64,000 bases of DNA from a virus (IMGVR_UViG_3300027917_001949:1-64000); one strand, 5' to 3'. Counted from the first letter of the stretch, positions 55,350-63,911 are shown. Translations and numbers: made by a program. The notes: generated from the letters alone by a model not told the origin.

Positions 55350-55378
55350 TTGACATGTGACCATTTATATGGTATAAT
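55350..55378 (+). promoter_or_regulatory. sigma70/sigmaA promoter for first tRNA group
   Basis: TTGACA-17-TATAAT with TG. Confidence 0.88.
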
Positions 55379-55404: not shown

Positions 55405-55475
55405 GCGTCCATAGTGTTAATATAGCATGTAACGCTTCCAACGTTACGGTGTGGGTTTGAATCCCGCTGGACGCT
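55405..55475 (+). tRNA. tRNA-Gly(TCC)
   Basis: GCGTCCA/TGGACGC acceptor; TAACG-ctTCCaa-CGTTA. Confidence 0.88.
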
Positions 55476-55480
55476 CTCAT

Positions 55481-55587
55481 GTAGGGCAAAGTGGTAAGTA
55501 AGGTAGTCGTATTCTAGAGAACGATACCCACGAGGTTGTTGTATAGGTAGCTCCTATTCAAAGAGGTTCGAACCCTCTCCCTACTCA
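55481..55587 (+). ncRNA. tRNA-like RNA with T arm and acceptor but expanded non-canonical core
   Basis: GTAGGG/CCCTAC; AGAGG-ttcgaac-CCTCT; about 75-nt interior with several hairpins. Confidence 0.5.
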
Positions 55588-55808
55588 TGAAAGTTATAGA
55601 TTATAAGTTAATATGTCGAAAGTGTGGGAAACAGATGGGTGCATTAAGCATGGCATATATCGGTGTACCACACAATACCGGTGTCAAAGCATGTACCTGT
55701 ATTGAGTGTCTGCCAAAATCTCTGGATGAAGCTGAAGCTAATGGTTATGATGAGAAGATAATCAAAGAGTTCAGAGAGTGGATTGCTGCGGGTAGGACAA
55801 ACGGTTAA
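55587..55808 (+). CDS. Small Cys-rich protein (stop lies within tRNA-Met)
   Basis: CRKCG...CIEC. Confidence 0.5.
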   Translation: MKVIDYKLICRKCGKQMGALSMAYIGVPHNTGVKACTCIECLPKSLDEAEANGYDEKIIKEFREWIAAGRTNG

Positions 55809-55859
55809 GTCGCAACCTTCATAAGGTTAGAGGATAGGGTTCAACTCCCTAACCCGCTA
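55787..55859 (+). tRNA. tRNA with CAT anticodon (Met; 1:72 mismatch, initiator-like)
   Basis: AACC-ttCATaa-GGTT; TAGGG-ttcaact-CCCTA. Confidence 0.8.
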
Positions 55860-56414
55860 ATGGGATTATTTGATTCATTACCAAACGGTAGTCAGGTAAA
55901 ACTTTGGGGATGTAACATGAAAACTTTCGAAGTAGGAGATGCAGTCCCCGATTTCGGTCTGCCAATATACATAATTATTCTCCGTGAAGGTGGGTTTGTG
56001 TCAGTCGAAGACGGTAAGATTATGGAGATACGTGAAGACGGGTTCAGGTATTTCCCAGAAGACTTTATGGGTGTACCGTGTTTTGACAAGTGGGGTAAAC
56101 GTCTCGATACCTACACCGAGATGGACGGGATATTCGGTTTTGACGAGTACTTTGACGAGCATGTCAAGAGCTTTGTGTCAAAAGACCGTATAGACCCGTG
56201 GAGAGGGAGAGTTCCGAAGCAGTTCCCGTTTCCGTTCCCTATTCCAACCACGTCTGATGGGGTGTTTGCGAAGTGTCCCAAATGTAACCGTATAAAGAGT
56301 TTGCGGGTATGTTATGGCTGTCAGGAAATTATGTGTGAGAACTGCTTAACGGAACATCAAATCGCATGTTTAAGAAAGGATGAAGATGAAATATTGGACA
56401 TACGTAGTGATTGA
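55860..56414 (+). CDS. Hypothetical protein with C-terminal Zn finger
   Basis: CPKC, CYGC, CENC..H..C. Confidence 0.6.
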   Translation: MGLFDSLPNGSQVKLWGCNMKTFEVGDAVPDFGLPIYIIILREGGFVSVEDGKIMEIREDGFRYFPEDFMGVPCFDKWGKRLDTYTEMDGIFGFDEYFDEHVKSFVSKDRIDPWRGRVPKQFPFPFPIPTTSDGVFAKCPKCNRIKSLRVCYGCQEIMCENCLTEHQIACLRKDEDEILDIRSD

Positions 56415-56820
56415 AGGTCACTGCTTTGGTGAGGAAGATGAGAATGGTCACAACCCATGTGGTGTTGATGTACCGTCTCCACGTTGTTTAGGTAATGGTA
56501 AGTCAGGAATGTGTCCCCATTTTGCCTGGACTCCTGAGACTGAACGTGAAGCTGCTTTTTTTGTACCGATTAAACTTATTTTGAAAGACAAATTTATAGG
56601 TCTCTGTCATCACATATGGGATAAGATTGAGTGGTATGCGTGGGGTCAGCTTTGGTTTAATCGTCGTAAGGTACGGGAATTCTTTGACAATATCGAGGTT
56701 GTAGATGACACTAATCCTTCGGTTCAGAGATGGTTAAAACAACAGGACAAGTCACAGACACAATTTGAAAAGTGGTTACCTAAAGTAAAGAAGGACTGGG
56801 ATGCCGATATACGTATATAG
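56380..56820 (+). CDS. Hypothetical Cys-rich protein
   Basis: ORF. Confidence 0.55.
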   Translation: MKMKYWTYVVIEGHCFGEEDENGHNPCGVDVPSPRCLGNGKSGMCPHFAWTPETEREAAFFVPIKLILKDKFIGLCHHIWDKIEWYAWGQLWFNRRKVREFFDNIEVVDDTNPSVQRWLKQQDKSQTQFEKWLPKVKKDWDADIRI

Positions 56821-57073
56821 ATGCGATGAGTGTGATACAGAGTTTGAGGAACGTCAGTCGTTTGATGATGAACCTCTCACAGAATGCCAAGAGTGTAGTG
56901 GTCCGATATATCGGGTAATATTTGCTACTCCTGTTCATTATAAGGGGGCAGGATTTGCGACCACTGAAGCACGTGGTATTACAGGGCGAAGAAGAAAGCC
57001 CAACATAAAGGTAGGTAGTGTGCATAACTTACCACCAGAAGAGAGGGAGAGAGCACTTGACCACTTCGACTAA
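56801..57073 (+). CDS. FmdB-family zinc ribbon protein
   Basis: MPIYVYRCDECDTEFEERQSF.DEPLTECQEC.G. Confidence 0.85.
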   Translation: MPIYVYRCDECDTEFEERQSFDDEPLTECQECSGPIYRVIFATPVHYKGAGFATTEARGITGRRRKPNIKVGSVHNLPPEERERALDHFD

Positions 57074-58019
57074 AGATGAATTACGAGCGTTACTATCAGA
57101 AGCGCAGAAACCGTATTTAGAGAGACATAAAGAACGTTTAGATAAAATTAAACCAGTATGGGATGAGTATCAAAGTGTTGTACCGGATGTGAATAATCTA
57201 CAACCATATATTCAGATAGCAGATGGTAACAAGGAATTACTTGACTTGCTGTTCTATGGACGAATGACTATATCAAGTTTCCCGTTCAGTGGGGCGGTTG
57301 GTAGAAGGATTCATTACTTGATACGGAATAAACCAGATGATTACATACTTGGATTAGTTGTAATAATGTCTGACTTGACTATACCTATACGTGATAAGCA
57401 TATAGGTTGGACAAGAGATAATATGTGGAAGAGCAAGAGGATAAACTATCTAATGAATGTACATCTTGCTATTAGTACACCACCGTTATCACAGTACTTA
57501 ACTGGTAAGTTAACCGCTATATCAGTTGAGAGCAAAGAAATCCAAGACTATTTCCAGGGAAAATATGGACACCCGTTGGCAGCAATGACGTGTACCAGTC
57601 TATTTGGTAAATCGTCAATCTATAATCGACTGAGAGGATACGAGTATTTAGGTTTGACGAAAGGGCATAGCGTTGCTCTTGTTCCGGTTGAGGTCAAGGA
57701 TAAAATGAGAGAAGACTTCAAAAAGGAAAAGGGTAAGCACTCCGAGATATACTATAACGAAGACGGTTCGGTCAAAGAAACGTATGGTGTCGTTAAAGGA
57801 TTTCAAAAACTCCAGAAATACTGGGATATTCAGCAGACGGAAAATCAACGAGGGACATACATTATTCCATTAGCTGAAAATTATAAGGAGTTCTTGTGTT
57901 GCGAGACGGATGAGTTGAAATCGTTTGACCATCCAACCTACGATGAACTTATAGATTATTGGAAGGAAAGATGGCTGAAAGGTCGTTTGGAGAGATTTGG
58001 TTTAAACACGGAGAACTAG
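57018..58019 (+). CDS. DUF4338 (Druantia DruA-like) protein; start probably downstream of 57018
   Basis: GRR..Y, RDKHIGW, GKL.A, KYG, TSLFG.SSIYNRL, YLGLTKG. Confidence 0.7.
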   Translation: MCITYHQKRGREHLTTSTKDELRALLSEAQKPYLERHKERLDKIKPVWDEYQSVVPDVNNLQPYIQIADGNKELLDLLFYGRMTISSFPFSGAVGRRIHYLIRNKPDDYILGLVVIMSDLTIPIRDKHIGWTRDNMWKSKRINYLMNVHLAISTPPLSQYLTGKLTAISVESKEIQDYFQGKYGHPLAAMTCTSLFGKSSIYNRLRGYEYLGLTKGHSVALVPVEVKDKMREDFKKEKGKHSEIYYNEDGSVKETYGVVKGFQKLQKYWDIQQTENQRGTYIIPLAENYKEFLCCETDELKSFDHPTYDELIDYWKERWLKGRLERFGLNTEN

Positions 58020-58183
58020 GTTATTACTTTTGACAATTTGAAGTAACTTCCTTGGGGAGTCCCGAACCAGAGTACATAACTTCATGTCCACGGGAAGGAA
58101 TGTGTTCTCCGTATAGGTGTGGATTTTACGATTTTTGCGATTCGTGTGAACGTAAATTTCACTGTGCAACACATAGAAAGTAA
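57971..58183 (+). CDS. 70-codon Cys-rich ORF with in-frame TGA at 58031 (readthrough or pseudogene)
   Basis: MAERSFGEIWFKHGELGYYF*QFEV...CDSCERKFHCATHRK; GGAAGG upstream. Confidence 0.45.
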
Positions 58184-58188
58184 GGGAG

Positions 58189-58617
58189 ATGACTATAATA
58201 GGAACAATATTAGCTCTTGTTCTAGCATTTGCACTGGTAGCTTTTCTAGCCTGTGGTTGGGTACGGGAAGTGAAACGCAACAAAGTTTTAGAGCATCAGC
58301 ACGAGGTAGCTATAAAAGAGAATAGAGCGGATGCAGTAAAACGCAGTCGTTCAGTCATTGAGGGACAAGTATTTGAACAGTTAATTGCACACTTTCCAGA
58401 GTGGAAGTTTACTCCGAGTGAAGCTAGGTTTCTTGGGTCACCTATCGATTACTTAGTGTTTGACGGTATGTCAACAGGTAACCCTGAGAAAGTAGTCTTT
58501 GTTGAGGTAAAGACTGGGACGAGTAAAACTACACCTATCCAAAACAAAATAAAGAAGCTGATTCAAGCAGGAAAGGTTGAATGGGAAACCATTGAATTAT
58601 CAAATGGCAAGCGTTAG
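58189..58617 (+). CDS. Membrane-anchored Holliday-resolvase-related endonuclease (Endonuc_Holl-like)
   Basis: N-terminal TM; KRSRSVIEGQVFEQ, RFLGSPIDYLVFDG, FVEVKTG. Confidence 0.85.
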   Translation: MTIIGTILALVLAFALVAFLACGWVREVKRNKVLEHQHEVAIKENRADAVKRSRSVIEGQVFEQLIAHFPEWKFTPSEARFLGSPIDYLVFDGMSTGNPEKVVFVEVKTGTSKTTPIQNKIKKLIQAGKVEWETIELSNGKR

Positions 58618-58906
58618 ATTAAATAAAGCAGAAGAAAAGATGCGGCAATATGGGCAACACAGGGAAGCGTTTGAGTCCATGTTAAATAGGTTCAATCGTT
58701 TAATTCAGCAGTCTGGTATCTATAGGGATTATAAAAAGTGTGAATCATATGAGAAACCTTCTGATAAGCGACGTCGAAAGAAGCGTGAAGCAGAGGCGAG
58801 GAAACGGAGGGAAAATAGAAGTGCCGTACATAGAAAAGGGCAGAAGAGAAATTCTAGACAACGCAATAAACAATCTGATTCAACACATTCGTCACGACCC
58901 AATTGA
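58604..58906 (+). CDS. rpsU: Ribosomal protein bS21 homolog
   Basis: EAFESMLNRFNR...SGI...YEKPSDKRRRKKREAEARK. Confidence 0.8.
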   Translation: MASVRLNKAEEKMRQYGQHREAFESMLNRFNRLIQQSGIYRDYKKCESYEKPSDKRRRKKREAEARKRRENRSAVHRKGQKRNSRQRNKQSDSTHSSRPN

Positions 58907-59084
58907 TGGCGAGCTTAACTATATGATAACTCGAATCATCGATGCCGCTCACGGTGGGGGTGGCTATGCTAGGTTTAACCGAGCGATGGGGGTGTTGGAT
59001 TGTGTGGCGAGAGAGTTTTACCGGAGACGTGTCGTTCCGTATGAGAACGTCAAAATAGAGGAGAATGGTGATGTATATAATTGA
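58821..59084 (+). CDS. Hypothetical phage protein
   Basis: GTG start after GGAGGG: PYI, GELNY.IT, GVLDC...EFYRR...PYE..K...NGDV. Confidence 0.7.
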   Translation: MPYIEKGRREILDNAINNLIQHIRHDPIDGELNYMITRIIDAAHGGGGYARFNRAMGVLDCVAREFYRRRVVPYENVKIEENGDVYN

Positions 59085-59304
59085 AGGTGTGTTTGACATG
59101 AAGTGGTATCCTGACGGTTCGGTCAGTCGAATGAAGTCAGCATTTAAGCAACCACTTAATACAGACCACGGAGTTATTGCTTTCATGAAGGAACAGCGAC
59201 CTTTTGAGAGTATAAAGATAACGAATACTACCACAAATGCAGATGTTACTGTGGACTTCTTGAAACAGGTAGACCCGAGGAGCGCAGTTAATGACCCAGA
59301 TTAA
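59071..59304 (+). CDS. Hypothetical protein
   Basis: ORF with GAGGAG RBS. Confidence 0.55.
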   Translation: MYIIEGVFDMKWYPDGSVSRMKSAFKQPLNTDHGVIAFMKEQRPFESIKITNTTTNADVTVDFLKQVDPRSAVNDPD

Positions 59305-59458
59305 AGATGAAATTAAAGACATAGAACTCATGATTTGGGAAAGTGTTTGTAAGACATGTCGTAAGTATGGTGATTGTGAATGGGTATCACCGTGTCACAA
59401 GGTTGGGAACAAAGCGGAGGAAATTTATAACAATGTTAATCGAAGTAAAGTCAGGTGA
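59291..59458 (+). CDS. Small Cx2Cx5C protein (55 aa, not in ORF track)
   Basis: GAGGAG RBS; CKTCRKYGDCEWVSPC. Confidence 0.55.
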   Translation: MTQIKDEIKDIELMIWESVCKTCRKYGDCEWVSPCHKVGNKAEEIYNNVNRSKVR

Positions 59459-60029
59459 TGTTCTTGTTTGTGTTAATAATCGGAATGACCTATTCTCAAA
59501 AATTAAACGGTGGGCAATGGGTCCGTATGAGCATGTTGAATCGTACATAGGTAATGGGTTATATGGCATACCTTTACTTGTGGAGAGTGATAATCGAGGA
59601 GTCGTTCTTCAGAATATCGCACATCAAGACGGCAGACGAGTTATGGTTATGCGTCCGATACGCAATGTACGCAGGAAAGACCTCGTATCACAAGCGGTCA
59701 TTATTGCGAGTGATAGTAAATCAGATTACGATTGGACGGGTGGTTTAAAATTGGCTGCGTTCAGAGTCCTTCGGGAGAAGTTTGGAATCAAACGACCATT
59801 GCTTCGTGTGTATGAACGTGATAAGAAGATGATATGCAGTGAAGCGATTGCGGAACTATTTTGGAGAAGTGATATTCCTGTTCTACCAGATAATGTTGTA
59901 CCTATTCCAGCAGATTTTGCAGTTGATTCGGATTGGTTGAACTATGTTGGTGAAGGTAATATGACGTTGGTTACTGACAACGATGAGTCGTTAGATTTAT
60001 ATATAGAGGATGGGCAAGGAAATGAGTAA
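59433..60029 (+). CDS. Permuted papain-like NlpC/P60 (YiiX-like) enzyme
   Basis: GDVL, YEHV (His) precedes YDW...ICSE (Cys); GGAGG RBS. Confidence 0.75.
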   Translation: MLIEVKSGDVLVCVNNRNDLFSKIKRWAMGPYEHVESYIGNGLYGIPLLVESDNRGVVLQNIAHQDGRRVMVMRPIRNVRRKDLVSQAVIIASDSKSDYDWTGGLKLAAFRVLREKFGIKRPLLRVYERDKKMICSEAIAELFWRSDIPVLPDNVVPIPADFAVDSDWLNYVGEGNMTLVTDNDESLDLYIEDGQGNE

Positions 60030-60294
60030 AGTTGATGACCGTGTTCTTGATGAACTGCTAGAGCGATTGCAATATATAACATTAAGAATACCAGATTGGT
60101 TATACAATACTAAGTTGAGGTATTGTGATGACTGTCAGACTATGACTGTTCAGTATCAAGTTGAAAGGTTTGGGTACATGTTTAATGACCAGTATGTTGA
60201 CAAATACTGGGTGTGTCTGTTCTGTGGCACTAAATGGATACCCGATAACGACATTAGGCTTGAAGAACCGGAGAATCCTGGTGAATCGATTTAA
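60022..60294 (+). CDS. Zn-ribbon protein
   Basis: CDDC...CLFCG. Confidence 0.55.
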   Translation: MSKVDDRVLDELLERLQYITLRIPDWLYNTKLRYCDDCQTMTVQYQVERFGYMFNDQYVDKYWVCLFCGTKWIPDNDIRLEEPENPGESI

Positions 60295-60571
60295 ACGTTG
60301 GTTGATGAGATTCCTTATTCCGAAAGGGGTTTATTGTGATGGATGCCCGTTTTGGTTTAGAGATGGTGGTAGACCTGAGCAGGAGAACGGTTACTGTTCT
60401 TATCTTAAGAAAGGTGATTGGGATTTGAATGAGGATATGGCTGATGAGGATTTCATTGTAAGCACAATGGACGGTGACAAAGCCGTAACCTCTATAATTA
60501 AAGGTAGAGACTTCCCGTTCGGTATGGCACTGCTGTGGGATGGATGTAAAGAATGTGGGGTTAAGTGGTAG
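60281..60571 (+). CDS. Cys-rich hypothetical protein
   Basis: IPKGVYCDGCPFW, GYCSYL, LLWDGCKECG; start uncertain. Confidence 0.55.
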   Translation: MNRFKRWLMRFLIPKGVYCDGCPFWFRDGGRPEQENGYCSYLKKGDWDLNEDMADEDFIVSTMDGDKAVTSIIKGRDFPFGMALLWDGCKECGVKW

Positions 60572-60934
60572 ATGGAAGGTCAAATTTATACTCCGTGGAC
60601 GAACGAGCAAGTTGAGCTTTTGAATGTCTATCAGCGTATTGGGATATTACACCCGTTCACTTGTAATGAACATCATACATTAATAGCTACTAATGATGGT
60701 TGGATTTGTAGTCAATGTTCTGATTATCATCAAGATTGGGCATGGGAAGCAATGGTAACTATTGGAGGGAAAATGAAAGACCAAAATGGTAGAGAGATAA
60801 AAAGAGAATTTGCTCCGAGGAAAGCTGACCCAGATAGCAAGTACAAAGTTAAGGTGGTTCAGAAAGAATCGGATTATAATGTTGACGTAGACCCAGAGAC
60901 GAAAAGACCTATTGTCACGAAAAAAGAAAAATAA
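60572..60934 (+). CDS. Hypothetical protein with Zn-binding motif
   Basis: PW, HPFTC, WICSQC..QDW. Confidence 0.6.
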   Translation: MEGQIYTPWTNEQVELLNVYQRIGILHPFTCNEHHTLIATNDGWICSQCSDYHQDWAWEAMVTIGGKMKDQNGREIKREFAPRKADPDSKYKVKVVQKESDYNVDVDPETKRPIVTKKEK

Positions 60935-60978
60935 TTAAAAATTTTTCAAAAATAATTGAAAAAAAGCCTATTTAGGGC

Positions 60979-61007
60979 TTGACTTCGGGTGTTTTGTATG
61001 TTATAAT
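60979..61007 (+). promoter_or_regulatory. sigma70/sigmaA promoter for main tRNA cluster
   Basis: TTGACT-17-TATAAT with TG; A-tract UP element. Confidence 0.88.
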
Positions 61008-61108
61008 ATAATTAGAGAGTGAGAAAAGCTCTCAAATATGAGGTATTGTATGAAGAAGAAACATAGATTATGTCCGAATGTCGAATCAAATATACAAGTG
61101 CCTAGTAC

Positions 61109-61183
61109 GGGGACGTAGCTCAAAGGTTGAGCATCGGTCTGATATACCGAAGGTTGTAGGTTCAAGTCCTACCGTCCCTACCA
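61109..61183 (+). tRNA. tRNA-Ile(GAT)
   Basis: TCGGT-ctGATat-ACCGA; encoded CCA. Confidence 0.92.
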
Positions 61184-61202
61184 AAAAGGTGGGGATTTTT
61201 AT

Positions 61203-61289
61203 TGGGGCGTTTAATGGGTTCAGGGAAGCTAACAGTTAATACTTAGTTAAGACACTTCCGAGTAGGTTAGACTCCTGCCGCTTCAACCA
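61203..61289 (+). ncRNA. Mini tmRNA-like tRNA domain (G3.U70, no anticodon arm, no tag ORF)
   Basis: TGGGGCG/CGCTTCA-A-CCA; stemless D-loop with GG.TTC; GGAAG/CTTCC helix; T arm. Confidence 0.6.
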
Positions 61290-61291
61290 AT

Positions 61292-61365
61292 AGAGGTGTA
61301 GCTAACAGGGAAGCAAAGGTGTTACATACCTTGATATGCAGGTTCAAATCCTGTCACCTCTACCA
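61292..61365 (+). tRNA. tRNA-Val(TAC)
   Basis: AAGGT-gtTACat-ACCTT; encoded CCA. Confidence 0.9.
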
Positions 61366-61367
61366 AG

Positions 61368-61820
61368 ATGTATAATGTAGGTGATGTTGTATATACGACT
61401 CATGATTTAAGGTCTGGAGTGAAAGAGTTTACTCCTGGCATTATCATCGATAGGTATAAGAATACGATTGACGTAGCCTTTCATGAGTGTGTCGTATCTT
61501 ACTGTATCGCCGGTAACTTTAAGAAATGTGATAAAGATTGTACTAATTGTCCAGCTAGGTTTAAATGCTTTACTAGAGATTTAGACAGAGTACCACATCC
61601 AAGTATGGTCACATACATTAAATTAGTCGCAAGGTATCACAGCGCATGTTCGAAATGTGGTAAGCATCTCACAACTGGAAAAGAGATTTGGTGGTCTCCT
61701 GTGGTTAAGGGAGTATACTGTATGGATTGCGGTGTCCCTGAATTCGGTTTGAGAGACCTTGAGGAGATACCTGATTCTGAACAAGTTGATTATTCGAAAG
61801 CGTATCGGGTTAAAAAATAA
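61368..61820 (+). CDS. Cys-rich protein with CxxCxxRFxCxT motif
   Basis: CTNCPARFKCFT; CSKCG...CMDC. Confidence 0.65.
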   Translation: MYNVGDVVYTTHDLRSGVKEFTPGIIIDRYKNTIDVAFHECVVSYCIAGNFKKCDKDCTNCPARFKCFTRDLDRVPHPSMVTYIKLVARYHSACSKCGKHLTTGKEIWWSPVVKGVYCMDCGVPEFGLRDLEEIPDSEQVDYSKAYRVKK

Positions 61821-61825
61821 CCCAC

Positions 61826-62011
61826 GACTTGTCTATTTGACAAGTAAGTTATCTGGATTAATGTTCGTAAAATTTGGTCGATATTAGTAATATCATTTTG
61901 TTTTGCTAAGGATGTCCGAATTTTTCGCAAAAAGTAATCTGTGAGGAATAGTCCAGATTGTTGACACCCAGATAGCGTAAAGTCCTTCCGTGAGTCTTAT
62001 TCTAGACTCAC
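61826..62011 (+). ncRNA. Candidate structured non-coding RNA
   Basis: Several nested helices in a gap with no credible ORF. Confidence 0.4.
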
Positions 62012-62013
62012 AT

Positions 62014-62086
62014 GCTAGGGTAGCCAAATGGTTAAGGCACGTTCTCGGTAAGAACGGGATTGTCGGTTCGAATCCGTCCCCTAGCT
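62014..62086 (+). tRNA. tRNA-Thr(GGT)
   Basis: CGTTC-tcGGTaa-GAACG. Confidence 0.88.
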
Positions 62087-62089
62087 CAC

Positions 62090-62175
62090 GGAGTAGTGGC
62101 AGAGAGGTTTATTGCGAACGGTTGCTAACCGTTTGGGCTAACGTCCCACAGGTTCGAATCCTGTCTACTCCGCCA
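62090..62175 (+). tRNA. tRNA-Ser(GCT)
   Basis: AACGG-ttGCTaa-CCGTT; variable arm; G73; CCA. Confidence 0.92.
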
Positions 62176-62184
62176 AAATAGGAC

Positions 62185-62213
62185 TTGACAAATGATTGAA
62201 TTTGTGGTATAAT
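62185..62213 (+). promoter_or_regulatory. sigma70/sigmaA promoter
   Basis: TTGACA-17-TATAAT with TG. Confidence 0.85.
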
Positions 62214-62427
62214 GAGAGTAGCGATAACTGGAGAAGTGTCTCCAAGTCGGTGGGGAAAAATTTATCTTGAGTGCACTCCACTCTTGGATAAATGTCTTAC
62301 GTGTAGAATAAGGTTTAGATGTTATACACACAAGGAATTTGATAACTGTGGTGGGTATGTGCGAGGTCGGGATGATTGTTTGCAACCCAGAGAATTTATG
62401 GAGTTTATGAATAAGTCGAATGAATGA
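62212..62427 (+). CDS. Small protein with CxxCxxRFxCxT motif
   Basis: CLTCRIRFRCYT; ATG overlaps -10 box so start uncertain. Confidence 0.55.
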   Translation: MRVAITGEVSPSRWGKIYLECTPLLDKCLTCRIRFRCYTHKEFDNCGGYVRGRDDCLQPREFMEFMNKSNE

Positions 62428-62593
62428 AGTTGAAATTATATCCGAGATAAATAGAGTACAGGAAAAAATGGTATCCGCAACTGAAGAAGAGAAGGTTGTC
62501 CTTCAGGAAAAATTAGCGGTACTGATGCGTCAATTGCAACCAGTCGAGAGAAGCAGAGACCAGAAAGCGTTTCTCGATGAGTGTGCTGGTTAA
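62420..62593 (+). CDS. Small helical protein (57 aa, not in ORF track)
   Basis: MNEVEIISEINRVQEK...DECAG*. Confidence 0.5.
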   Translation: MNEVEIISEINRVQEKMVSATEEEKVVLQEKLAVLMRQLQPVERSRDQKAFLDECAG

Positions 62594-62599
62594 GAAGAA

Positions 62600-62677
62600 G
62601 GAAGTGTAGCTCAATTTGGTTAGAGTAGCGGTCTTTTAAACCGTTCGTTGAGAGTTCGAGTCTCTCCACTTCCACCA
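62600..62677 (+). tRNA. tRNA-Lys(TTT)
   Basis: GCGGT-ctTTTaa-ACCGT; CCA. Confidence 0.92.
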
Positions 62678-62678
62678 T

Positions 62679-62780
62679 GCAGGGGATAGTTTAACGGTAA
62701 AATAGCTGTAAAGTTGAAAGAGTTGACTTTATTATCCTAGATAAGGAGTAGCTGTCGGTTCGAGTCCGACTTCCCTGCCA
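62679..62780 (+). ncRNA. tRNA-like RNA with branched insert replacing the anticodon arm
   Basis: Normal acceptor, D and T arms; 50-nt two-hairpin interior. Confidence 0.6.
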
Positions 62781-62783
62781 CAT

Positions 62784-62860
62784 GAGGTCGTAGCTCAATT
62801 AGGCAGAGCACTGGTCTCTTAAACCAGTCGTTAAGGGTTCGATTCCCTTCGACCTCACCA
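62784..62860 (+). tRNA. tRNA-Lys(CTT)
   Basis: CTGGT-ctCTTaa-ACCAG; CCA. Confidence 0.92.
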
Positions 62861-62862
62861 AT

Positions 62863-62919
62863 GGGCTAGTGAGTTAATGGTAACGGTGCACAATATGGGT
62901 CCGATTCCCATCTAGTCCA
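62863..62919 (+). ncRNA. 57-nt anticodon-armless tRNA-Ala-like RNA
   Basis: GGGCTAG/CTAGTCC-A (G3.U70, A73); D and T arms; only 10 nt between them. Confidence 0.65.
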
Positions 62920-63018
62920 CATGGGCATCGATAGGACAATCCCTACGTTGTTCAATAGGCATAAGCAGTTCCTATTTTTACAGAAATGTCTTTTGTGTTT
63001 TACTGCTCGCCGATTAAT

Positions 63019-63092
63019 GGGGCTATAGTCTAATGGCAGGACACTACCCCCTCAAGGTAGCATTGTCGGTTCGAATCCGTCTAGCCCTACCA
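63019..63092 (+). tRNA. tRNA-Glu(CTC)
   Basis: CTACC-ccCTCaa-GGTAG; CCA. Confidence 0.88.
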
Positions 63093-63430
63093 TGAAAAAA
63101 GTAGAAACTTTTACGGCACGAATATACTTAGGACTCAAGGAAGGATATAATGGTCGTGTTCGTGGGTTTGATGAGGTTAGAAAGTGTCTGGAAGAGTATG
63201 TGAAGGTTAATCCCTTCTGCTTTACTCTTGAGCATACTATCTTTATCCACACGGATGGCACAGAACCTGGTGCAGTGATTGGGATTATTAACTATCCACG
63301 TTTCCCCAGAACTAGACCAGAGCTAAAGAAGATAGCTTTAAAAGTGGCAGAAGACCTGCGTGTGTTGTTCGTGCAAAACAGAGTATCTGTAGTGTTTACA
63401 GATGAAACGGTAATGCTTGGTGACGAGTAG
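63092..63430 (+). CDS. Hypothetical phage protein
   Basis: IY.GL.EGY, EPG, INYPRFP, QNRVSV. Confidence 0.65.
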   Translation: MKKVETFTARIYLGLKEGYNGRVRGFDEVRKCLEEYVKVNPFCFTLEHTIFIHTDGTEPGAVIGIINYPRFPRTRPELKKIALKVAEDLRVLFVQNRVSVVFTDETVMLGDE

Positions 63431-63673
63431 ATGCCGAACACTCGCTACTTGAAACTAATTTGTGTATCCTGTCACAAGCGTAAGAAGGATTGTACATGTC
63501 ACTCTCATTACGCAAAGTATCATGGTGCAAAATATGGGTATACGTGGTGTGTTGATGTTGGTGTTGGCGCATATTGTGATGAATGCGTAAATAGGTTTTA
63601 TTGTTTTACTCATCGAGGATGGTTTGGGACAGATTTACCAGACTATAAATCGTATTACGGAGTATTGAATTAG
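63431..63673 (+). CDS. Small protein with CxxCxxRFxCxT motif
   Basis: CDECVNRFYCFT. Confidence 0.6.
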   Translation: MPNTRYLKLICVSCHKRKKDCTCHSHYAKYHGAKYGYTWCVDVGVGAYCDECVNRFYCFTHRGWFGTDLPDYKSYYGVLN

Positions 63674-63768
63674 GGAGCGTAGCACAATTTGGCAGTGCAG
63701 CAGTCTTATAAGCTGTTTAGGGTCTGATACACCCGAGGTTACAGGTTCGAGTCCTGTCGCTCCTACCA
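63673..63768 (+). tRNA. tRNA-Ile with two tandem anticodon arms (TAT and GAT)
   Basis: GCAGT-ctTATaa-GCTGT, tt, aGGGT-ctGATac-ACCCg; normal acceptor, D, T arms and CCA. Confidence 0.8.
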
Positions 63769-63831
63769 ACAAACTCGTCACGCTTTTAATAATGTGGTCA
63801 TTACTTTAAGCGCAACCTGACGAGTGTTTAT

Positions 63832-63909
63832 CCCCCTGTAGCTCAATTGGATTTAGAGCACGACGCTACGAACGTCGGTTAGTTGCGGGTTCGAGTCCTG
63901 TCAGGGGGT
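63832..63909 (+). tRNA. tRNA-Arg(ACG)
   Basis: CGACG-ctACGaa-CGTCG. Confidence 0.9.
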
Positions 63910-63911
63910 CG

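Follow-up and report, generated by a model that had tools for sequence, protein, structure and literature searches.

Ten canonical tRNAs and five tRNA-like RNAs with remodelled anticodon domains in the tRNA array of an uncultured phage

Among the tRNA genes of an uncultured phage (153-kb genome) are RNAs that keep the pairing of the acceptor and T arm while the anticodon domain is altered, raising the question of whether they are decaying tRNAs, parts of one system directed at translation, or genes with functions of their own. The window analyzed here is a 64,000-nt stretch of this phage, in which an initial annotation had described ten near-canonical tRNAs interleaved with five such RNAs and had proposed a translation-takeover or decoy system. 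We number the five odd RNAs 1 to 5 in the order of their positions; the features of the region are as follows.

55350-55378, + strand: sigma-70-type promoter, extended -10, 12/12 match, 5' of tRNA-Gly, RNA 1 and the subsequent ORFs
55405-55476, + strand: tRNA-Gly(UCC), canonical (ARAGORN, Rfam)
55481-55587, + strand: RNA 1, 107-nt tRNA-like RNA (acceptor and T-arm pairing, folding)
55787-55859, + strand: tRNA-Met(CAU) (ARAGORN, Rfam)
58577-58906, + strand: homolog of ribosomal protein bS21 (Pfam PF01165, 48.3 bits)
60979-61007, + strand: sigma-70-type promoter, TG extension, 11/12 match
61109-61183, + strand: tRNA-Ile(GAU), canonical (ARAGORN), acceptor and T arm similar to RNA 2
61203-61289, + strand: RNA 2, 87 nt, with 7-bp acceptor, A73 and encoded CCA
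61292-61365, + strand: tRNA-Val(UAC) (ARAGORN)
62014-62175, + strand: tRNA-Thr(GGU) and tRNA-Ser(GCU) (ARAGORN)
62185-62213, + strand: sigma-70-type promoter, TG extension, 12/12 match
62600-62677, + strand: tRNA-Lys(UUU) (ARAGORN)
62679-62779, + strand: RNA 3, tRNA-shaped RNA of ~100 nt (Rfam, homolog alignment)
62784-62860, + strand: tRNA-Lys(CUU) (ARAGORN)
62863-62919, + strand: RNA 4, 57-nt mini tRNA without anticodon arm (strict scanner, homologs)
62954-63015, + strand: conserved RNA motif, AAGCAGU-UCCUAU...ACUGCU-CGCC, distinct from the five odd RNAs
63019-63092, + strand: tRNA-Glu(CUC) (ARAGORN)
63673-63768, + strand: RNA 5, tRNA-Ile(UAU), 96 nt (ARAGORN, as Ile(tat); Rfam, 57.7 bits)
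63832-63910, + strand: tRNA-Arg(ACG) (ARAGORN)

The tRNA array and its odd RNAs

The phage genome has 32 ARAGORN tRNAs, at 55.4-71.3 kb, and the region, with its three near-perfect promoters, appears to be the beginning of a 17-kb tRNA array under strong sigma-70-type control. Alongside this array, the phage encodes an RNase P RNA of its own (196 bits; also found in relatives G001, G002, and G005), a tmRNA (116 bits), and bS21, whose presence in the vicinity the annotation had rightly pointed out.

Scanning 55405-63910 with ARAGORN, we found, besides the ten canonical tRNAs, an 11th of 96 nt, Ile(tat), that begins at 63673, and Rfam added a tRNA match with a large insert at 62680-62778, corresponding to RNA 3; RNAs 1, 2, and 4 had no match to the Rfam tRNA model (RF00005) at E <= 10. 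A strict scanner that demanded a T stem with 5/5 pairs, a T loop of the form T[TC][CA][AG]A.., and an acceptor with 7/7 pairs directly abutting the T stem returned RNA 2 (61203), RNA 3 (62680), and RNA 4 (62863) as its matches outside the ARAGORN set, against a background in shuffled sequence of 2.2 hits per 109 kb, or ~0.4 for the 19.5-kb region scanned. The described composition of the region is thereby borne out, more weakly for RNA 1, as is the remodelling of the anticodon domain: RNA 5 has a second anticodon-like arm, RNA 4 has no such arm, and RNAs 1 to 3 have other hairpins instead. Folding energies of the single sequences are nonsignificant for all five (z = +0.2 to -1.5), so the support for these RNAs comes from their relatives and not from thermodynamics.

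Structure, conservation, and identity nucleotides of the five RNAs

RNA 5 combines a canonical anticodon arm (loop CUUAUAA), A73, and CCA with an extra arm after the UAU arm, a covarying 4-bp hairpin, GGGU-CUGAUAC-ACCC, that displays GAU. Every stem has changed in a compensatory manner among its four clade homologs. In an alignment of 74 two-armed sequences (A9), the inner three pairs of the extra arm are 97% paired and the outer pair 87%; the covariation score, counted over the 14 pairs of the anticodon stem, extra arm, and T stem, is 0.90 compared to 0.19 for shuffles (0/500 reach 0.90), and slid partner columns give at most 0.15. GAU occupies loop positions 3-5 in 70 of the 74 sequences, and in 47 of 51 in a scan where GAU was not required, while A73 is invariant in A9. 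The tRNA-Ile(UAU) with a GAU hairpin at the position of the variable arm is a widespread phage class, on which our literature search found no paper. AUA makes up 36% of the Ile codons of the phage, and we take RNA 5 to be a true decoder of this heavily used codon. The extra loop of the class mostly lacks a U at position 2 and a purine at position 6 and therefore is not a decoding loop; recognition by IleRS is the usual, putative guess for the role of the arm. Relatives G003 and L301 carry a plain tRNA-Ile(UAU) of 74-76 nt, so the extra arm is dispensable in some settings. Related known cases are the class I, TilS-independent tRNA-Ile(UAU) of Mycoplasma mobile and of B. subtilis suppressors; the bacterial tRNAs have a short variable loop where RNA 5, with its 7/5 acceptor/T branch, has a second 4-bp hairpin with a 7-nt GAU loop.

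RNA 2, whose acceptor is closest to that of the adjacent tRNA-Ile(GAU), has a conserved, stemless 5' segment, UUUAAUGGGUUCAGG, and a covarying central helix of 5-6 bp closed by ~20-26 nt, followed by a T arm with the family loop UUARACU. CCA is encoded in all four homologs (alignment A7), and the central helix stays paired where G:C is exchanged for U:A or A:U for C:G. Pairwise identity is 86-95% (G001, L300, and L301); the canonical tRNAs, compared between these genomes, have median identities of 73-75%. The tRNA-like domain of tmRNA resembles it in several respects: the 7-bp acceptor with A73-CCA, a stemless D-loop-like segment GGGUUC as at the 5' end of the phage's own tmRNA, a helix that closes the body and leads through a short linker to the T arm, and a T loop, UUAGACU, that is one base off the UUCGACU of the phage tmRNA. 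RNA 2 differs in having neither message nor pseudoknots. Assignment as a tmRNA was rejected, since RNA 2 scores 12.3 bits against RF00023 (E = 0.12; gathering score, 47), and its body of ~20-26 nt has no tag ORF. G3:U70 occurs in one of the four homologs, the window copy, with G3:C70 in the other three, and therefore alanylation is no family trait. Most likely, RNA 2 would bind a partner of the tRNA-like domain of tmRNA.

In RNA 3, the acceptor has 8 bp, one of them a -1:73 pair. A D arm of 4 bp and a T arm are present, and two closed hairpins replace the anticodon arm and the variable arm. Hairpin 1 (7-8 bp, with the conserved 5' strand AAAGUUG) has a loop of 3-5 nt in all four homologs instead of a 7-nt anticodon loop, and for this reason RNA 3 falls outside the cloverleaf definition even though it scores 37.7 bits against RF00005 (threshold, 29). 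No homolog has a mismatch in any of the five helices, and both partners of a pair have changed together in the acceptor (among others at -1:73, from G:C to U:A), in the D stem, and in the T stem. Minimum free energy folds of three of the four homologs give the identical five-helix layout, and G001-G002 identity is 89%, where canonical tRNAs have a median of 77%. The pair G-1:C73, present in three homologs, brings tRNA-His to mind, a doubtful identity given that L301 has U-1:A73 and that the phage's own tRNA-His(GUG) has U73 without G-1, matching an atypical His system (PMC5389517).

The acceptor of RNA 4 has the pairs G1:C72, G2:C71, G3:U70, and C4:G69, followed by A73, and its interior consists of a short D-like hairpin with GG in the loop, a 10-nt linker with the palindrome GUGCAC, and the T arm. 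In the three homologs, from three phages and 56-57 nt long, G1-G2-G3:U70-C4-U5, C71, C72, and A73 are invariant, with double changes at pairs 6:67 and 7:66 (A:U to G:C and G:C to U:A). The placement varies: the window copy follows a Lys gene, the G001 copy is flanked by two Pro genes, and the L439 copy lies 63 nt behind a tRNA-Ala whose acceptor is similar. The anticodon is not read by AlaRS, and the G3:U70 rule is reportedly known from the alanine minihelices of Francklyn and Schimmel; on an acceptor/T helix of 12 bp, RNA 4 likewise retains G1:C72, G2:C71, G3:U70, and A73. Unlike them, it is natural, genome encoded, and equipped with the D-like hairpin and palindromic linker; position 4:69 is C:G and not G:C. 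RNA 4 is most likely a putative AlaRS substrate, an alanyl mini-tRNA.

RNA 1 has six contiguous acceptor pairs (GUAGGG/CCCUAC) with the seventh mismatched, a perfect T arm (AGAGG-UUCGAAC-CCUCU), and in its middle a GUGG/CCAC helix enclosing a hairpin with a 10-nt loop, followed by a second hairpin of 5 bp. In 11 relatives, the syntenic site holds no homolog. RNA 1 overlaps by its last base the ATG of a 73-aa ORF, and it most likely serves as a processing mark of tRNA-like form, specific to this lineage, ahead of the ORF.

Decay, processing sites, one system, or separate genes

RNAs 2 to 5 are under selection, and RNAs 2 to 4 appear to be working genes that relatives conserve as carefully as real tRNAs. 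The suggested look for covariation in relatives revealed compensatory changes in all four, and the argument that random pseudogene decay is unlikely stands, since the conservation of RNAs 2 and 3 matches or exceeds that of canonical tRNAs compared between these genomes. That the odd RNAs are functionless, decaying tRNA duplicates draws on RNA 1 being a singleton with an imperfect acceptor, on the off-consensus T loop UCCGAUU in the window copy of RNA 4, and on the unremarkable folding scores. However, conservation of RNAs 2 to 5 is tRNA-like or higher, every homolog is fully paired in all stems, and RNA 2 retains CCA; decay is already contradicted for these four and very improbable as an account of the whole. 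We give even less credit to the notion of interrupted tRNA genes spliced to normal tRNAs, which seems far-fetched: the intron mode of ARAGORN reads 62680-62779 as tRNA-Asn(gtt) i(38,6) and Rfam aligns RNA 3 as a tRNA plus insert, but the insert is too small for group I or II ribozymes, the four RNA 3 homologs share no conserved anticodon, with a hairpin 1 loop too short throughout, and RNA 4 has nothing to splice.

Another possibility is that the anticodon-less RNAs are purely cleavage sites for RNase P and RNase Z, without function in trans, releasing from the array transcripts both tRNAs and mRNAs with a short leader or none. Comparable acceptor/T modules, cotranscribed with tRNAs or mRNAs and cut by the two enzymes, are the punctuating mitochondrial tRNAs, the t-elements of plant mitochondria, and species 1 and 2 of phage T4 (rnaC and rnaD; compared by description only). 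The half that is kept (a 12-bp acceptor/T helix, with CCA in RNA 2) is the minimal substrate of these enzymes, the phage encodes RNase P RNA, and ATG ORFs begin 0-3 nt behind at least 16 canonical tRNAs of the array as well as behind RNA 1 (offset 0) and RNA 4 (+2; 35 aa). RNAs 2 and 3, in contrast, adjoin only tRNAs, and since a canonical tRNA always lies 1-6 nt away and already gives cleavage sites, they would be redundant; yet sequence outside the acceptor is conserved (UUUAAUGGGUUCAGG in RNA 2, the AAAGUUG strand and D arm in RNA 3), to a degree equal to or exceeding that of functional tRNAs. Nor does cleavage require G3:U70 and A73, the AlaRS determinants retained in 3/3 copies of RNA 4. 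We regard punctuation as unlikely for the set. The originally proposed single system, in which the RNAs titrate host anti-phage tRNA nucleases, or synthetases, EF-Tu, or SmpB, for translation takeover, is less probable still. In its favor, the phage that carries these nondecoding tRNA-shaped RNAs also encodes bS21, tmRNA, and RNase P RNA; further points are the likeness of RNA 2 to the tmRNA domain in score and 5' segment and the AlaRS identity set on RNA 4. Against it, the five RNAs are of four or five structurally unrelated kinds that move independently in relatives, as RNA 4 does; RNA 5 decodes; no defence or counter-defence gene is consistently linked to them; and a full tmRNA of the phage's own would be odd beside blocked trans-translation. 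Decoys for anticodon nucleases are unlikely in particular, since those enzymes require an anticodon loop, and RNAs 2 to 4 have none to cut.

The reading that we prefer, with chances a little above even, is that of separate tRNA-derived genes, in which RNA 5 is a decoder, RNAs 2 to 4 are nondecoding mimics, and RNA 1 is a processing mark. The mimics retain the acceptor/T-arm helix, the part recognized by RNase P, RNase Z, the CCA-adding enzyme, EF-Tu, and anticodon-independent synthetases; they would be excised from array transcripts and matured in the manner of tRNAs, and each may act in trans by binding a protein through its own conserved lower half. Structures, conservation, covariation, and identity nucleotides are observed directly; processing, charging, and partners are predicted from them. 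From the takeover proposal, binding to a synthetase, EF-Tu, or SmpB, or use as aminoacyl donors, is possible for RNA 4, with its conserved Ala identity, and for RNA 2. A search of the phage genome found no SmpB, no FemAB- or Acetyltransf_6-type transferase, and no TROVE/Ro protein. The families of RNAs 2 to 4 have 3-4 members each, from one uncultured clade except for L439, and have no members among GenBank phages.

Comparison with known tRNA-like RNAs

YrlA RNAs, found also in phages, are likewise nondecoding and carry a tRNA-like module made of T arm, D arm, and acceptor-like stem; enzymes that act on tRNAs recognize it, and in M. smegmatis these include RNase P and the activity that adds CCA (Chen et al. 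2014, PMC4201824). Their ends form a Ro-binding stem with a GNCGAA motif, and the gene adjoins Ro60 (PMC4201824), whereas the ends of the RNAs described here form the acceptor stem. Membership in this family was rejected (RF02553, 23-25 bits compared to 69; no PF05731 match in the phage genome). Allo-tRNAs and the polycistrons of irregular tRNAs in metagenomes are clustered noncanonical tRNAs in which acceptor stems and extra arms are long; their commonest anticodon is UAU, some have a "five-stem-junction", and some apparently act outside translation (Mukai et al. 2017, PMC5389517; PMC7609411). The RNAs studied here resemble them as noncanonical members of a tRNA cluster. However, allo-tRNAs are defined by a 12-bp acceptor/T branch of 8/4 or 9/3 (Mukai et al. 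2017, PMC5389517), while RNA 3 is 8/5 and RNAs 2, 4, and 5 are 7/5, which led us to reject this assignment as well; moreover, RNAs 2 to 4 are entirely without an anticodon loop.

The separate RNA motif, seen at 62954-63015, has two further copies on the minus strand at ~91.35-91.5 kb of the genome; for a 631-aa ORF adjoining this motif, a Pfam search gave no match.

The tRNA array and its phage clade

The window, whose genes lie nearly all on the + strand and whose GC content is about 41%, covers the first 64 kb of one virus record of 152,753 bp. ARAGORN finds 32 tRNAs in the genome, from 55.4 to 71.3 kb; in the window, ARAGORN and Rfam give ten canonical tRNAs and a 96-nt tRNA-Ile(tat). A search of GenBank phages for near-identical relatives found none, and the closest cultured match of PolA is less than 31% identical. 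The phage belongs to a clade of uncultured phages of roughly 130-150 kb that keeps both gene order and tRNA order, whose members were found via PolA (up to 70% identity) and a DruA-like protein; the IMG/VR protein scan with DruA alone gave no matches, and an alignment query did recover matches. The DruA-like gene lies inside the tRNA region and is kept across the clade. Handles beginning with G or L denote other phage genomes or contigs, except L001 and L004, which are later stretches of the same genome.

Features of the window, including five odd tRNA-like RNAs (RNA1 to RNA5)
55350, 60979 and 62185: three sigma-70 promoters, near-perfect and with an extended -10
55481-55587, + strand: RNA1
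57018-58019: DruA-like protein, Druantia defence component (PF14236, E = 6e-25)
58577-58906: bS21
61203-61289, + strand: RNA2, tmRNA-domain-like
62679-62779, + strand: RNA3, tRNA-shaped with closed hairpins
62863-62919, + strand: RNA4, mini RNA with an alanine-type end
63673-63768, + strand: RNA5, tRNA-Ile(UAU) with an extra hairpin arm

A strict acceptor/T-arm scanner, with a chance expectation of about 0.4 matches for the region, recovered RNA2, RNA3 and RNA4 as additional tRNA-shaped elements and three more of the same type just past the window. Four of the five odd RNAs escape ARAGORN and three escape the Rfam gathering search, and two further tRNA genes just past the window are missed or half-missed by standard tools. 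Phage tRNA arrays encode more than standard tools see. Since the single-sequence folding energies and z-scores of the five RNAs are unremarkable and uninformative, the case for them rests on comparison with relatives.

Conservation of RNA2, RNA3 and RNA5

RNA2 has homologs in G001 (L274:6508-6593, with an identical copy in L283), L300, and L301. All four copies have a 7-bp acceptor, A73, and an encoded CCA. A stemless segment, UUUAAUGGGU(U/G)CAGG, does not vary among them; double changes preserve the pairing of the central helix, and the T loop reads UUARACU. In layout and 5' segment RNA2 resembles the tRNA-like domain of the phage's own tmRNA, and the Rfam tmRNA model matches it weakly from end to end (12.3 bits), while its acceptor and T arm are most like those of the adjacent tRNA-Ile(GAU). 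Among G001, L300, and L301, RNA2 exceeds in conservation nearly all canonical tRNAs compared between these genomes (86-95% identity versus canonical medians of 73-75%). Alanine identity is ruled out as a family trait, because G3:U70 is confined to the copy in the window, the other three of four having G3:C70. The IMG/VR search for a wider family returned only the already known relative. At 61174-61196, the 3' acceptor strand of tRNA-Ile(GAU) and the spacer just before RNA2 make up a terminator-like hairpin with a U-run. This hairpin could be an alternative to the tRNA fold and could control whether transcription continues into RNA2 and tRNA-Val.

RNA3 has homologs in G001, G002, and L301, and in three phages it sits between both tRNA-Lys genes at a spacing of 1-5 nt. 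The acceptor has 8 bp in each copy, counting a -1:73 pair that is G:C in three and U:A in one, and each D arm has 4 bp and a loop containing GG or GU. The first hairpin has 7-8 pairs and a loop of 3-5 nt; its 5' strand is always AAAGUUG, and its 3' strand varies yet remains paired; a second hairpin and the T arm complete the fold, with no anticodon loop. A histidine identity is weakened by U-1:A73 in L301 and by the phage's own atypical tRNA-His. Pattern-scan matches that might have widened the family are ordinary tRNAs whose anticodon stem has AAAGUUG as its 3' strand, plus one unrelated odd tRNA (L446 type).

RNA5 has four homologs in the clade, with compensatory changes preserving every stem, and two IMG/VR pattern scans, one of them without the extra-arm motif requirement, yielded 74 distinct long tRNA-Ile(UAU) sequences. 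In this class, pairing holds in 97% of cells for the three inner pairs of the extra arm and in 87% for the outer pair (n = 74), and the covariation score, counted over 14 pairs of the anticodon stem, extra arm, and T stem, is 0.90 versus 0.19 for shuffles and at most 0.15 for slid partner columns. A73 is invariant, and 70 of the 74 sequences have GAU at positions 3-5 of the 7-nt extra loop, as do 47 of the 51 from the scan without the GAU requirement. A predominates at position 2 of this loop and U at position 6; the loop therefore seems to display the Ile anticodon and not to decode. A long arm combined with A73 is reminiscent of the nematode nev-tRNA-Ile(UAU), which is charged with Leu (PMC3333845).

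The two-armed design is rare among species-representative bacterial and archaeal genomes, where it occurs mostly within dense tRNA arrays, and our literature search for it found no paper. Mukai et al. described abundant "allo-tRNA-UAU" with five-stem shapes (PMC5389517); those are defined as 8/4, whereas RNA5 is 7/5. AUA makes up 36% of the phage's Ile codons, and relatives G003 and L301 carry a plain 74-76-nt tRNA-Ile(UAU). The two-armed tRNA bears on how a phage supplies AUA decoding without TilS. A relevant known case is that of transferred mycobacterial tRNA clusters, which express tRNA-Ile(TAT) (PMC6582537).

RNA4, RNA1 and the competing explanations

Homologs of RNA4 lie between two tRNA-Pro genes in G001 and 63 nt behind the tRNA-Ala of L439, another large phage contig. 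G1:C72, G2:C71, G3:U70, C4:G69, U5:A68, and A73 are invariant, and pairs 6:67 and 7:66 and two T-stem pairs have changed on both sides (helix tables were made by script; a MAFFT alignment misplaced the window copy). RNA4 is thus a predicted AlaRS substrate. A short D-like hairpin is present in all copies, along with a 10-nt linker whose opening palindrome differs from copy to copy (GUGCAC, AUGCGCAU, and ACUAGU). Since about 30% of shuffled linkers contain a palindrome of at least 6 nt, so that only the shared position is suggestive, dimerisation through the linker is speculative. RNA1 has six acceptor pairs and one mismatch, and no homolog was found by BLAST against all loci collected in the analysis or at the site behind tRNA-Gly(UCC) in 11 relatives. 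RNA1 ends at the ATG of a 73-aa ORF, a layout that recurs along the array: ATG ORFs start 0-3 nt past the 3' ends of at least 16 canonical tRNAs (genome 55.4-72.2 kb), often sharing the A of CCA. This spacing points to a release of leaderless or very short-leader mRNAs that would depend on tRNA processing.

A pure processing role fits RNA1 and perhaps RNA4, but it leaves unexplained both the conserved lower halves of RNA2 and RNA3 and their redundancy beside canonical tRNAs. The initial annotation had considered random pseudogene decay an unlikely source, and comparison with relatives bears this out for RNA2 to RNA5, where the sequences exclude it; its proposal of a single translation-takeover or decoy system made of all five RNAs is not supported as such. 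With decay excluded and processing insufficient for RNA2 and RNA3, we favor predicted non-decoding tRNA mimics that would be matured like tRNAs and act by protein binding. A search of the phage genome for partner genes of charged mimics found no SmpB, FemAB, or Acetyltransf_6. Relevant known cases are YrlA (PMC4201824) and the allo-tRNAs and irregular tRNA polycistrons (PMC5389517, PMC7609411).

A joint reading, which we put forward tentatively and judge rather improbable as a whole, is that the clade encodes non-decoding tRNA mimics that act in trans and feed into the tRNA pathway of the host. RNA4 would lack an anticodon arm and be a mini-tRNA charged with alanine, and two such molecules may pair through the palindromic linker into a two-headed one; RNA2 would be a tmRNA-like domain without a message, and RNA3 a tRNA-shaped scaffold whose "anticodon" hairpin is closed. 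Beside these mimics, RNA5 would be a tRNA-Ile(UAU) whose GAU display arm would win acceptance by the host IleRS. If true, this set would constitute a new class of small phage RNAs, with synthetases, EF-Tu, SmpB, or ribosome rescue as the targets. Should the RNAs that lack an anticodon prove to be matured and charged, they would count as naturally occurring tRNA top-half molecules whose roles in phage infection are regulatory or non-ribosomal; to our knowledge, the cases that reveal such roles have so far been chiefly engineered minihelices, tmRNA, Y RNAs, and a small number of odd bacterial RNAs.

Other RNA genes of the array and genome

Further RNA genes (genome positions)
62954-63015 (window) and about 91353-91496 (- strand): RNA motif AAG(C/U)AGU-UCCUAU-variable hairpin-ACU(G/A)CU-CGCC, three copies
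64540-64620 (L001:540-620): tRNA-Arg(CCU)-like gene, 81 nt
64698-64774, 67181-67256, 68520-68594 and 69236-69312: four tRNA-Leu genes
67420-67823 (L001:3420-3823): complete class A RNase P RNA (Rfam, 196 bits)
67825-67900: tRNA-His(GUG)
71781-71866: Ser-type tRNA, anticodon UGA, 83-86 nt
137156-137489 (L004:13156-13489): tmRNA (Rfam, 116 bits)

The RNase P RNA lies inside the tRNA array, outside the window and 1 nt upstream of tRNA-His; it has homologs in G001, G002, and G005 and is not found in G003 or G004. Our literature search for a phage-encoded RNase P RNA found no report. The tmRNA, also outside the window, receives no ARAGORN call, and the genome has no SmpB gene. Together with the array and bS21, these two RNAs suggest that much of the phage's tRNA supply and processing is phage-borne.

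Two tandem copies of the AAG(C/U)AGU-UCCUAU motif stand upstream of a 631-aa ORF without a Pfam match; the idea of a Ro/Y-RNA pair was dropped, with no TROVE match in the genome. In relatives, too, the motif follows tRNA-Lys(CUU), twice in G002 and as a 19-nt identity in L013 and L016. The tRNA-Arg(CCU)-like gene lacks a normal D arm, a CGG...CCG pairing enclosing its anticodon arm with a GG-containing segment behind; it is kept in G001, G002, G003, G005, L298, L301, and L304, and its anticodon stem covaries.

All four tRNA-Leu genes are 75-77 nt and thus lack the long variable arm, a trait shared with the transferred mycobacterial clusters, which have short-armed tRNA-Leu (PMC6582537); G002 has 84-88-nt versions of three of the four. 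With U73 and no encoded G-1, the tRNA-His(GUG) has the atypical form described from certain alphaproteobacteria and from phages of theirs; it may be a clue to the host. The Ser-type tRNA has the loop CCUGAAA, with C at position 33, and G73-CCA; plain ARAGORN and the Rfam gathering search miss it, and an ATG ORF begins 1 nt behind it.
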